Assembly: GCF_003334815.1 (NCBI RefSeq)
Contig: NZ_QOWO01000066.1
From: Escherichia coli
GTDB taxonomy: Bacteria; Pseudomonadota; Gammaproteobacteria; Enterobacterales; Enterobacteriaceae
Reading direction: 5' to 3' (one strand)
Length of the DNA stretch: 8,045 bases
The notes under the pieces were generated by a model that was given only the letters and a program-made list of their open reading frames with translations, had not been told where the DNA came from and did no database searches. The position numbers and the translations under genes are program-made. Position 1 is the stretch's first letter. Each line of letters begins with the position of its first letter. Positions 2,960-8,045 of this stretch are shown one piece after another.

Positions 2960-3056
2960 GATGTCTGCGACAGGACTCTCTGAATAGTTGATACACCGAA
3001 AAGGATGGAAAGATGGACAACCGACCTGGGATGGTCTTTTTTACGAGAGGATGCGT

Positions 3057-4619
3057 ATGAACTCGTTTTCACTTCTGACAACCCCGTGGTTGCCCGTTCG
3101 TTTTAAAGACGGAACGACAGGCAAACTGGCGCCAGTCGATCTGGCGGATGAAAATGTTGTCGATATTTCTGCGCCGCGGGCAGATCTCCAGGGTGCGGTA
3201 TGGCAGTTTTTGCTGGGGCTACTACAAACCAGCTTCGCGCCAAAAGATCATCGTCGTTGGGATGATATCTGGGAAGACGGACTGGAAGCTGAAAAGCTAC
3301 GGGAAGCATTGCAGTCATTAGAACATGCTTTCCAGTTTGGGCCAGATTCCCCTTCATTTATGCAGGATTTCGAGGCGCTCACCGGAGATAAAGTTCCGGT
3401 CGCTTCGCTACTGCCTGAGATTCCCGGCGCTCAAACAACGAAGTTTAATAAAGACCACTTTATCAAGCGTGGTGTAACGGAATACCTGTGCCCACATTGT
3501 TCTGCGTTAGCTCTGTTCTCCCTACAGTTGAATGCGCCGTCAGGTGGCAAAGGCTACCGCACCGGTTTACGCGGCGGTGGGCCGATGACCACTCTGATTG
3601 AATTACAGGAATATCAGGGTAATCAACAAACTCCCTTGTGGCGCAAACTGTGGATCAATGTCATGCCGCAGGATGAAGCCGATTTACCGCTACCCAAAAA
3701 ATTTGACGATCTGGTTTTCCCCTGGCTTGGCCCGACGCGCACCAGCGAACTGGCCGGTGCGGTGGTAACCGATGAGCAGGTCAATAAACTCCAGGCGTAC
3801 TGGGGAATGCCTCGCCGTATTCGTATTGATTTTAATACCACGACAGTCGGCAACTGCGATATTTGCGGTGAGCAGAGCGACGCGCTCCTGAGCCTGATGA
3901 CGACCAAAAATTACGGTGCGAATTATGCCATGTGGCAGCATCCCTTAACGCCTTACCGTGTACCACTTAAAGAGGGTGGCGAGTTTTACTCCGTTAAACC
4001 ACAACCGGGCGGTTTAATCTGGCGTGACTGGTTAGGCCTTATCGAAACGGGTAAATCAGAAAACAATACGGAACTTCCCGCGCTGGTGGTGAAACTCTTC
4101 AATGCCAGCAGTCTCAAGCAGGCAAAAGTGGGCCTGTGGGGATTTGGCTATGATTTCGACAACATGAAAGCGCGCTGTTGGTACGAACACCATTTCCCGC
4201 TGCTGCTCGATAAAAAAGAAGGTCAGATACCGAAGCTGCGGCTGGCTGCGCAAACAGCTTCACGGATTCTAAGTCTGTTACGGAGTGCATTGAAAGAAGC
4301 ATGGTTCTCCGATCCAAAAGGTGCAAGGGGTGATTTTAGTTTTGTGGATATCGACTTCTGGAACAAAACTCAGCATCGCTTTCTGAGGTTAGTGCGCCAA
4401 ATTGAAGAAGGTCAGGATGCGGATGAATTACTCAGCAAATGGAATAAGGAAATTTGGTTATTCGCACGTCAGGATTTTGACGAGCGTGTATTCACCAATC
4501 CTTATGAGCCCGTTGATCTGGAACGCGTCATGACCGCGCGCAAGAAATATTTTACAACATCGGCGGAGAAGCAAAGTGCTAAAGCCGCCAGGGAGAAAAA
4601 GCAGGAGGCTGCTGAATGA
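3057..4619 (+). CDS. cse1: Cascade large subunit Cse1/Cas8e (CasA), ~520 aa
   Basis: N-terminus MNSFSLLTTPWLPVRFKDG resembles the E. coli CasA N-terminus (..NWIPVR..) and an internal GLRGGGPMTT resembles CasA SGLRGGTPVTT, both as I recall them. The stop overlaps the cse2 start. Start chosen at ATG 3057, with GAGG six nt upstream; the ORF-track start at 2988 is a TTG, and ATG 3051 is also possible. Confidence 0.88.
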   Translation: MNSFSLLTTPWLPVRFKDGTTGKLAPVDLADENVVDISAPRADLQGAVWQFLLGLLQTSFAPKDHRRWDDIWEDGLEAEKLREALQSLEHAFQFGPDSPSFMQDFEALTGDKVPVASLLPEIPGAQTTKFNKDHFIKRGVTEYLCPHCSALALFSLQLNAPSGGKGYRTGLRGGGPMTTLIELQEYQGNQQTPLWRKLWINVMPQDEADLPLPKKFDDLVFPWLGPTRTSELAGAVVTDEQVNKLQAYWGMPRRIRIDFNTTTVGNCDICGEQSDALLSLMTTKNYGANYAMWQHPLTPYRVPLKEGGEFYSVKPQPGGLIWRDWLGLIETGKSENNTELPALVVKLFNASSLKQAKVGLWGFGYDFDNMKARCWYEHHFPLLLDKKEGQIPKLRLAAQTASRILSLLRSALKEAWFSDPKGARGDFSFVDIDFWNKTQHRFLRLVRQIEEGQDADELLSKWNKEIWLFARQDFDERVFTNPYEPVDLERVMTARKKYFTTSAEKQSAKAAREKKQEAAE

Positions 4620-5152
4620 GTATTGTAAAAGAGGAGCACAAAGCCACGCTGCGCAAATGGCACGAGGAATTGCAGGAGAAACGTGGCGAACGTGCCAGTC
4701 TGCGGCGTAGTACGACGGTTAATGATGTTTGTCTGACGGATGGATTTCGCCTGTTTCTGAAGAACAGACAAATAAAGTGGCAGGATGAACCTGAGTGGCG
4801 TATCACCGCACTGGCGCTGATAGCCGCAGTTAGCGCCAATGTTAAAGCTATTGATGAACGGCAGCCTTTTGCCGCGCAGCTGGCGGCGGTAATGTCAAAG
4901 GGGCGTTTTACTCGTCTGTCGGCAGTAAAAACACCGGATGAATTACTGCGCCAGTTACGCCGCGCAGTCAGATTATTAAACGGTTCCGTCAATCTTGACT
5001 CTCTGGCAGAGGGGGTCTTCCGTTGGTGCCAGGAGAGCGACGACCTGCTCAATCATCACCGCCGCCAGCAGCGGCCAACCGAATTTATCCGTATCCGCTG
5101 GGCGCTGGAATATTACCAGGCTGGCGACGCCGATAACGAACAAAATCAATAA
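4616..5152 (+). CDS. cse2: Cascade small subunit Cse2/Cas11 (CasB), 178 aa
   Basis: ATG at 4616 overlaps the cse1 stop (ATGA), with AGGAGG about 8 nt upstream. Size, basic/helical composition and position between cse1 and the cas7 start are as expected for Cse2. Assignment is mainly by synteny and size. Confidence 0.8.
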   Translation: MSIVKEEHKATLRKWHEELQEKRGERASLRRSTTVNDVCLTDGFRLFLKNRQIKWQDEPEWRITALALIAAVSANVKAIDERQPFAAQLAAVMSKGRFTRLSAVKTPDELLRQLRRAVRLLNGSVNLDSLAEGVFRWCQESDDLLNHHRRQQRPTEFIRIRWALEYYQAGDADNEQNQ

Positions 5153-5163
5153 AGGACTATCTC

Positions 5164-5208
5164 ATGACAACATTTATTCAGCTTCATTTGTTAAGGGGCG
5201 GCTTATGA
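5164..5208 (+). pseudogene. cas7: cas7 (casC/cse4) remnant: 14-codon stub MTTFIQLHLLRGGL*
   Basis: ATG at 5164 preceded by AAAGGA at the expected spacing. The first residues (MTTFIQLHLL) resemble the E. coli CasC N-terminus (MSNFINIHVL, as I recall it). The ORF ends after 14 codons at a TGA that overlaps the cas5 ATG. A native cas7 is about 360 codons. Confidence 0.5.
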
Positions 5209-5526
5209 GCCAATATCTGATTTTTCAGCTTCATGGGCCGATGGCGTCCTGGGGTGTCGATGCTCCAGGTGAAGTTCGTCATACCCATGAACTTCCTTCG
5301 CGCTCAGCATTGCTGGGGCTACTGGCTGCCGGGGTAGGGATTCGGCGTGATGATACCGAACGCTTAAACGCGTTTAATCGCCACTATTCACTGGTGGTTT
5401 GCGCCAGCCGTAACCCGCGCTGGGCACGGGATTATCACACGGTCCAGATGCCAAAAGAGGTGCGTAAAGCACGTTATTTCAGCCGTCGCGAAGAGTTGAG
5501 CGACCCTGATCCGCACGCACATTCCG

Positions 5527-6605
<1,079 letters not shown>

Positions 6606-6701
6606 GTTATCCGTTCTTTAAAAATAAGGAAATGTTTTAATTTAGTTGGTAGATTGTTGATGCGGAATAAATTTGTTTAAAAACAGTTATGTATGCTTAG
6701 T
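6606..6701 (+). promoter_or_regulatory. CRISPR leader (AT-rich, between cas2 and first repeat)
   Basis: 96-bp AT-rich segment immediately upstream of repeat 1 and downstream of cas2, the canonical I-E leader position that carries the array promoter and IHF/integration signals. Confidence 0.8.
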
Positions 6702-7949
6702 GTGTTCCCCGCGCCAGCGGGGATAAACCGAACATTAAATTGCCGTGCTGGATGAATCGCGGGTGTTCCCCGCGCCAGCGGGGATAAACCCTGGATCAGC
6801 TGGTTCAATCGTTTACAGCACTGGTGTTCCCCGCGCCAGCGGGGATAAACCGGCAGTAAATTATTTGACCTCGTTGATAATCCCGTGTTCCCCGCGCCAG
6901 CGGGGATAAACCGCCGGTGCAACTGATATTGATAAACGTCGACTCGTGTTCCCCGCGCCAGCGGGGATAAACCGACACCCGACCGCTAACCGATTTCGTT
7001 ACAGTAGTGTTCCCCGCGCCAGCGGGGATAAACCGTGTATCACCGAAAGAATGGTTTGACGCGCAGGGTGTTCCCCGCGCCAGCGGGGATAAACCGACGT
7101 CTATCATTTTCAGTACAAGCTGGGTTTTGTGTTCCCCGCGCCAGCGGGGATAAACCGGACGATCCCGAGATTCACAGAGTTACAACTAAGTGTTCCCCGC
7201 GCCAGCGGGGATAAACCGGAAATTTTCACATGGATTGTAGCCCTGTATATGTGTTCCCCGCGCCAGCGGGGATAAACCGGCCAGGCGGTCGGATTAGGTG
7301 CAAATCAAAATGTGTTCCCCGCGCCAGCGGGGATAAACCGCGCTGGCGGTGCGAGTGCTGGAGGCGCTGAAAGTGTTCCCCGCGCCAGCGGGGATAAACC
7401 GCAGGAGACGGCCAGCCGGAACGGCGGCGGCGTGTGTTCCCCGCGCCAGCGGGGATAAACCGTCGGGCGGCTCTGGTGTTCCTGACATGGCGGCGTGTTC
7501 CCCGCGCCAGCGGGGATAAACCGAATTTGCATCACATAGGGGCGAGGCTCAGTGAGTGTTCCCCGCGCCAGCGGGGATAAACCGTTCTTGCGGGTGTTGC
7601 AAATATTCTCCACGTAGTGTTCCCCGCGCCAGCGGGGATAAACCGCCTGTTTTTTGTGCGGGGAATTATGGGGGAATGTGTTCCCCGCGCCAGCGGGGAT
7701 AAACCGTTATACTGATTTTGATTTGTATTTCGGTCGCTGTGTTCCCCGCGCCAGCGGGGATAAACCGACACGCCCTGCCGTATTTACTGACGCGCAGGAG
7801 TGTTCCCCGCGCCAGCGGGGATAAACCGCCGCGCAAATCCAGCGAGCCGCCGACGCTCAGTGTTCCCCGCGCCAGCGGGGATAAACCGTTGCAAACCGTG
7901 GCAAACGCAATTAACAAAAAGTGTTCCCCGCGCCAGCGGGGATAAACCG
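6702..7949 (+). CRISPR. Type I-E CRISPR array: 21 x 29-bp repeats (GTGTTCCCCGCGCCAGCGGGGATAAACCG), 20 unique spacers
   Basis: Repeat starts at 6702, 6763, 6824 and so on at 61-bp period to 7800, then 7860 and 7921. Spacers are 32 bp except spacer 19 (7829-7859, 31 bp). Repeat 2 ends in C instead of G (6791). The repeat has the CCCCGC/GCGGGG stem and ATAAACCG 5-prime handle typical of I-E crRNA. Transcribed on + from the leader, so the newest spacer is 6731-6762. Confidence 0.97.
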
Positions 7950-7967
7950 AGTTAAGAGGGGGTTTTT

Positions 7968-8045
7968 CCCATAAGCGCTAACTTAAGGGTTGTGGTATTA
8001 CGCCTGATATGATTTAACGTGCCGATGAATTACTCTCACGATAAC
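7968..8045. repeat. Right terminal inverted repeat (78 bp), reverse complement of 1..78
   Basis: Hand comparison shows an exact reverse-complement match to bases 1-78. It begins 18 bp after the last CRISPR repeat. Confidence 0.93.

Follow-up and report, generated by a model that had tools for sequence, protein, structure and literature searches.

The window, by which we mean the whole 8,045-nucleotide stretch of Escherichia coli DNA that was analysed, carries a CRISPR array with its leader and a degraded cas operon. Its features are given below, with L numbers denoting the loci used for comparison.

260–2959, + strand: cas3 (NCBIfam Cas3 models)
2988–4619, + strand: casA/cse1 (TIGR02547, E=3e-183; in strain PK5 the gene is annotated as starting at the equivalent of window 3057)
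4616–5152, + strand: casB/cse2 (TIGR02548)
5164–5208, + strand: cas7e remnant of 14 codons (~1022 bp deleted relative to strain PK5; same junction in strain 52F4)
5205–5509, + strand: cas5e 5′ fragment, followed by a 1186-bp deletion that took the 3′ end of cas5e, the whole cas6e gene and the 5′ end of cas1e
5508–6315, + strand: cas1e without its first ~39 codons (TIGR03638 matched from profile position 43)
6312–6605, + strand: cas2e (TIGR01873)
6606–6701, + strand: AT-rich leader between cas2e and repeat 1 (96 bp, 26% GC; layout as in annotated E. coli genomes)
6702–7949, + strand: CRISPR1 array, 21 repeats and 20 spacers (direct reading)
6702–6730, + strand: repeat 1, leader-proximal and newer, ends in G (direct reading)
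6731–6762, + strand: spacer 1 (32/32 in L025, L028 and L029; preceded there by cgcATG)
6763–6791, + strand: repeat 2, the sole C-ending repeat among 21 (direct reading)
6791, + strand: terminal C, repeat position 29 (matches the C in prophage AAG-C-TGGATCAG)
6792–6823, + strand: spacer 2, 32 nt (32/32 in L011, L012, L023 and L025; 31/32 in L006–L010, L013 and L022)
7280–7311, + strand: spacer 10 (32/32 in L026, 31/32 in L025; preceded there by ttaATG)
7950–8045, + strand: likely IS end abutting the last repeat (identical to the sequence before an IS421-family transposase gene in strain TO6, L004)

Read directly from the window, the array consists of 29-nt repeats at 61-nt spacing, and 19 of the 20 spacers are 32 nt long. 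The remaining one, spacer 19 (7829–7859), is 31 nt rather than 32, and an identical 31-nt spacer is present in strain TO6. The 29-nt repeat GTGTTCCCCGCGCCAGCGGGGATAAACCG, the 32-nt spacers and the 61-bp period are those of a type I-E array, as is its site downstream of cas2e and an AT-rich leader, near the signature genes cse1 and cse2. The repeat type, GTGTTCC..., belongs to the non-K12 'cas-EO' variant, for which the acquisition motif is CWT, equal to AWG on the strand used here, with CAT found at 34 of 55 natural protospacers of that variant (Diez-Villasenor 2013, PMC3737337). The window array is the E. coli CRISPR1 / 2.1 type I-E array of this variant, next to a degraded operon. Twenty of the 21 repeats are identical in sequence and end in G; repeat 2, GTGTTCCCCGCGCCAGCGGGGATAAACCC, differs from them at a single position, the C at 6791. 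The original prediction had drawn attention to this repeat and to the spacer behind it, and both its coordinates and its description proved exact on direct reading. Because repeat 1, which is newer and leader-proximal, ends in G, the C at 6791 was not propagated to the next repeat.

The operon is far from complete when set against strain PK5, whose intact operon served as the reference for the deletions: there is no cas7e or cas6e, and what remains of cas5e and cas1e is truncated. The 1022-bp cas7e deletion has TAA microhomology at its junction (~5194) and the 1186-bp deletion has GA microhomology (~5509). Since the cas7e junction recurs in strain 52F4, which also carries spacer 2, that deletion is real in a natural isolate; the second junction was seen in no complete genome. 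The window array can be neither used nor extended, since Cas7e, Cas6e and an intact Cas1e are all missing, and the array is now a fossil in which the C at 6791 is a historical record. The array ends with a perfect repeat, and in TO6 the same junction to the likely IS end comes after three further spacers, so that the window lineage probably lost three units by repeat–repeat recombination. The TO6 array also carries the spacer ACACGCCCTGCTGTATTTACTGACGCGCAGGA, one base off window spacer 18, twice in tandem (L004 2128–2249), a duplication of one repeat–spacer unit.

In E. coli type I-E systems, the prespacer includes the last PAM base pair, which ends up as repeat position 29, such that a deviant PAM leaves a deviant repeat end (Swarts 2012, PMC3338789). 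The original prediction started from the premise that the repeat takes its last base from the end of the PAM, and this is experimentally established. Relaxed short-query BLAST of E. coli genomes returned one non-CRISPR match, in strain N1420, within a GPO-family capsid-scaffold gene of a 33-kb HP1/P2-like prophage adjoining a tRNA-Leu gene. This allele reads ...gaaggc AAG T TGGATCAGtTGGTTCAATCGTTTACAGCACTG acagg and agrees with spacer 2 at 31/32 positions. A second allele was reached through the cluster members of the N1420 gpO protein and their contigs, in two independent assemblies (GCA_054858535.1, Logan ERR1622260). It reads ...gaaggc AAG C TGGATCAGCTGGTTCAATCGTTTACAGCACTG and agrees with spacer 2 at 32/32 positions, or at 33/33 in the alignment when the last base of repeat 2 is counted; the gpO fragment that holds it runs GGCAAGCTGGATCAG... 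In this perfect protospacer the base at −1 is C and AAG occupies −4 to −2, exactly one base farther upstream than the canonical position, and the effective PAM is AGC. The protospacer check that the original prediction had proposed therefore gave a source without a canonical in-register AAG, and its suggestion of a non-canonical PAM or a slipped integration event is supported by a C at −1 and an AAG one base out of register.

The reading frame of gpO at the site is AAG CTG GAT CAG CTG ... (K L D Q L), in which the −1 base is the first base of a Leu codon. Because this codon varies between CTG and TTG among the phage variants, the −1 base is C in some and T in others, and since both are first positions of Leu codons, these differences are synonymous. 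The commoner prophage variant has T at −1, the rarer CTG variant, on which the reading of the C at 6791 depends, occurs in 2–3 assemblies, and G was found at −1 of the spacer 2 protospacer in no phage variant. Escape from CRISPR targeting was considered as the origin of the T-variant phage, its PAM being AGT and position 9 a mismatch, and was rejected, because the variants differ by ~8.5% overall, a divergence that predicts 2–3 differences per 32 nt by drift alone. Whole-array BLAST against a phage collection gave no match for spacer 2, and against plasmids it was overwhelmed by matches to other CRISPR arrays. Neither IMG/VR nor the GTDB species representatives nor JGI metagenomes contained a match to the protospacer as an exact or codon-degenerate pattern, so that the relaxed BLAST and the protein cluster were the sole route to it. 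The source phage family is absent from the 50,697 deposited phage records searched, given that the relatives returned by tblastn of gpO against deposited phages were all ≤39% identical. One prophage with perfect protospacers also encodes an early-region protein (L023 5362–6303) with a precomputed Pfam match to an AcrVA2-like family (PF26125).

Each window spacer was searched against the prophage loci, and in a shuffled-spacer control 0/200 sequences gave a match within 8 mismatches. The protospacer of spacer 1 (32/32) lies in the same prophage as that of spacer 2 (L025), 10.2 kb downstream and on the same strand; that of spacer 10 (32/32) lies in a sister phage (L026), again on the strand of the spacer 2 protospacer. 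Both protospacers are preceded by ATG, and the repeats of both spacers end in G. Imperfect phage matches were obtained for spacers 3, 6, 12 and 19, with ATG, CGG, ATG and GTG upstream, respectively, and hence G at −1 in all four. For every checkable spacer, the exceptional repeat 2 included, the last repeat base is the base that precedes the protospacer. The AWG motif is found as ATG at the perfect matches of spacers 1 and 10 and at the imperfect matches of spacers 3 and 12. The original prediction had named AAG as the PAM, which needs one refinement: the cas-EO variant uses AWG and is not confined to AAG (PMC3737337), and spacers 1 and 10 have ATG. The best phage match of spacer 19, with 4 mismatches and the GTG upstream, is Edwardsiella phage Edno5, and spacer 7 (7097–7128) has a weaker match (6–7 mismatches) in the HP1/P2-like prophage family of spacer 2, on the same strand.

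To follow the C through related arrays, a 66-nt probe that runs from the end of repeat 2 through spacer 2 into the start of repeat 3 was compared with 5,426 complete E. coli genomes. The probe matched 46 of them, 42 at 100% identity, and because the context is identical in these 42 genomes the C at 6791 is no sequencing quirk of the window. The four variant matches were read individually: two have ...AAACTC, one has CACCG, and one, in strain N96, lies in a different array. In the two ...AAACTC genomes an extra C-to-T change is present at repeat position 28 and the C at position 29 is retained, while the CACCG variant is changed at the far end of spacer 2 and retains the C. The position-28 change, in strains CFSAN061761 and H7 (L002 1486–1517 and L003 1486–1517, where the repeat ends ...ATAAACTC), is a genuine later point mutation beside the retained C; the arrays of these two strains also carry one newer spacer ahead of spacer 1. 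A metagenome scan with a gapped pattern, able to catch G, GC or GT junctions as well, matched four contigs, all with ...AAACCC. In one of these contigs (L034) the leader is followed directly by the C-ending repeat, so that spacer 1 was either not yet acquired there or has been lost. The comparison of relatives that the original prediction had called for, as a way to see whether the C is ancestral, thus found C in all 49 CRISPR1 arrays with spacer 2, of which 45 are in complete genomes and 4 on metagenome contigs, and a G, T or GC junction in none of them. The array-junction pattern had no match in GTDB representatives.

We conclude that the C at 6791 is very probably the product of a spacer capture that slipped by +1 in gpO of an HP1/P2-like prophage. 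Slippage of this kind has been described before: spacers without AAG often come from slippage after AAG recognition, as was first reported by Shmakov 2014 (PMC4027179), and in E. coli I-E systems +1 is the commonest slip, accounting for 37% of non-AAG prespacer use and yielding AGN PAMs (Stringer preprint, bioRxiv 10.1101/2020.02.10.942821). The source would be the gpO (capsid scaffold) gene of a temperate E. coli phage, at 5′-GGC AAG C|TGG ATC AGC TGG ... CAC TG-3′. In the normal case the Cas1–Cas2 integrase keeps the last PAM base, the G of AAG or ATG, as the first base pair of a 33-bp prespacer, and at integration this first base turns into position 29 of the repeat that is newly formed next to the leader. 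In the case of spacer 2 the prespacer would have been taken one base downstream of the normal register, starting at the C after AAG and ending one base farther on, with the 33-bp unit (C plus 32 nt) and the 61-bp period left unchanged by the slip. The repeat before spacer 2 would then have ended in C from the moment of acquisition, and the next acquisition, spacer 1 from the same phage with an ATG PAM, would have given the new first repeat its G while the C stayed with spacer 2. This last step agrees with the finding that the last repeat base is always the third PAM base and that a variant base does not pass to the repeat made at the following acquisition (Swarts 2012, PMC3338789).

What was found at the locus corresponds to such a capture in each respect that can be read from sequence. 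A protospacer identical to the spacer lies in a mobile element (32/32, prophage gpO), the consensus PAM lies one base upstream of its canonical position (AAG at −4 to −2), the last repeat base equals the protospacer −1 base (C and C), and both ends of the 33-bp unit are shifted, given that a canonical unit would end one base earlier. At this level the feature fits every expectation for a +1 slipped acquisition. We further infer that the slip followed recognition of the AAG, as opposed to PAM-independent capture.

The same site was also captured in strain N96 (L005, NZ_CM169999.1, 1243–1640), in a CRISPR2 array at queE–ygcE with K-12-type repeats (GAGTTCC...). There a normal ...CCG repeat is followed by a 33-nt spacer, TTGGATCAGCTGGTTCAATCGTTTACAGCACTG, from the same protospacer as spacer 2, and this spacer runs TTGGATCAG...CACTG, in the canonical AAG register. 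The capture in N96 was independent, and the unit shows the form of the canonical product at the gpO site. Because N96 used the same AAG canonically, the AAG upstream of the spacer 2 protospacer is a recognised capture site. N96 is not an ancestor of the window array, since its cas and repeat variant, its array and its phage allele (TTG) all differ from those behind the window array. The two spacers neighbouring the captured unit in N96 also show similarity to this phage family, with 7 mismatches and on the same strand. Elsewhere in this CRISPR2 array one repeat ends in A and another in T, and a protospacer search for the T-ending repeat and its spacer found nothing useful.

Three other routes to the C were weighed. 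Under PAM-independent capture, a naive and error-prone process would have taken up a fragment that happened to start with C, and the AAG one base upstream would be a coincidence. Naive adaptation in E. coli does use many non-AAG sites (literature cited in bioRxiv 10.1101/2020.02.10.942821), but an AWG at exactly the +1 offset is expected by chance in only about 3% of cases, the same AAG was used canonically by N96, and three same-strand spacers from one phage look more like primed adaptation, which is highly PAM-specific. A rough posterior, calculated with a prior of 37% for a +1 slip among non-consensus captures and a chance of ~3% for AWG otherwise, favours the slip by ~20 to 1 over PAM-independent capture, with the slip frequencies coming from the K-12 cas variant under primed adaptation and the window belonging to the cas-EO variant. 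We consider capture irrespective of the PAM to be highly improbable here. The sequence seen today could also have arisen from a canonical-register capture of a 34-bp prespacer (G plus the 33-nt CTGGATCAG...CACTG) and a later 1-bp loss of the position-29 G, giving ...AAACC-C-TGG. The final sequence would be the same as that of a one-step slip, N96 captured just such a G plus 33-nt unit with the same PAM-distal end at this gpO site, and in K-12 ~1% of use goes to 34-bp AAG-associated prespacers that are one base longer at the PAM-distal end (bioRxiv 10.1101/2020.02.10.942821). This route, however, takes two rare events rather than one, its intermediate ...AAACCGCTGGATCAG was not found in the 5,426 complete genomes or in the metagenome scan, and N96, with its other cas and repeat variant, other array and TTG allele, is no ancestor; a capture followed by deletion therefore strikes us as very unlikely.

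The original prediction had offered a simple point mutation as the alternative, in which a repeat end of G (or of T, after a slip on the TTG allele) changed to C after acquisition. Repeat mutations do occur, with C-to-T changes in terminal repeats and, in two strains, the ...AAACTC form of this very repeat as examples. However, the −1 base is C in the perfect phage match and G in no variant, all of which have C or T, so that a G would never be expected in this register, and G before spacer 2 is retained in none of the 45 genomes and in none of the 4 metagenome contigs, with T equally missing from the 49. A mutated base would moreover match the protospacer base by chance only ~1/3 of the time, and the non-canonical register would be left unexplained. 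Mutation from G is contradicted by the lack of any allele with G at −1 together with the 49 arrays with C, and point mutation is effectively excluded as the origin of the C.

Slipped capture during acquisition, the reading that we retain, is well known as a mechanism, with experimental evidence from E. coli already available (Swarts 2012; Shmakov 2014; Stringer preprint 2020). The window resembles the acquisitions of Swarts 2012 (PMC3338789) in that the last repeat base is the protospacer −1 base (there CCT-AAT, CCA-CGA and CCA-AAA) and in that the variant base stays with its own spacer, the next repeat being normal (here C in repeat 2 and G in repeat 1). Those were laboratory acquisitions from a plasmid in K-12, whereas the event in the window is natural and fixed, involves the cas-EO (AWG-PAM) variant and has a prophage as its source. 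With the '+1 slipping' of Shmakov 2014 (PMC4027179) and Stringer (10.1101/2020.02.10.942821) it shares a PAM one base upstream, a 33-bp prespacer and an AGN PAM; those studies give population-level deep-sequencing statistics, in contrast to a single slipped spacer in at least 49 sequenced arrays. The class of 34-bp AAG-associated prespacers (Stringer preprint) is fitted by the N96 CRISPR2 copy (G plus 33 nt), which shares its PAM-distal end with spacer 2, but the window unit itself has the normal length. A natural non-G last repeat base is also known from the CCT polymorphism in repeat 2 of K-12 CRISPR 2.3, for which Swarts 2012 (PMC3338789) gives only the polymorphism, while the window case comes with its protospacer. 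What is specific here is the perfect natural protospacer of a slipped spacer together with its retention in about 50 sequenced arrays. The window is a tidy natural example, and neither a new phenomenon nor a new mechanism. It illustrates the laboratory findings that position 29 of the type I-E repeat is part of the captured fragment and that off-by-one capture errors persist in wild arrays. Where a repeat in an E. coli or Salmonella array ends in a base other than G, that base should accordingly be treated as spacer information and not as repeat decay, and it can help in locating protospacers and PAM registers.

The slip also bears on what spacer 2 could do. In K-12, an AGC PAM is intermediate for interference and proficient for priming, and AGT is inert (Musharova 2019, PMC6568314). 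By analogy, the crRNA of spacer 2 (5′ handle AUAAACCC) would face an AGC PAM, at which intermediate interference and support for priming would be expected. The three same-strand spacers from one phage family fit primed adaptation, which is only suggestive given a chance of 1/4 that three fall on one strand. It is conceivable, though on balance unlikely, that the array records successive acquisitions by primed adaptation in nature against a single HP1-like phage, first spacer 10 (ATG), then spacer 2 (the +1 slip at AAG) and then spacer 1 (ATG), with spacer 2 possibly triggering the acquisition of spacer 1 10.2 kb away. If that were the case, the window would show from nature that a slipped spacer can serve as a seed for priming.
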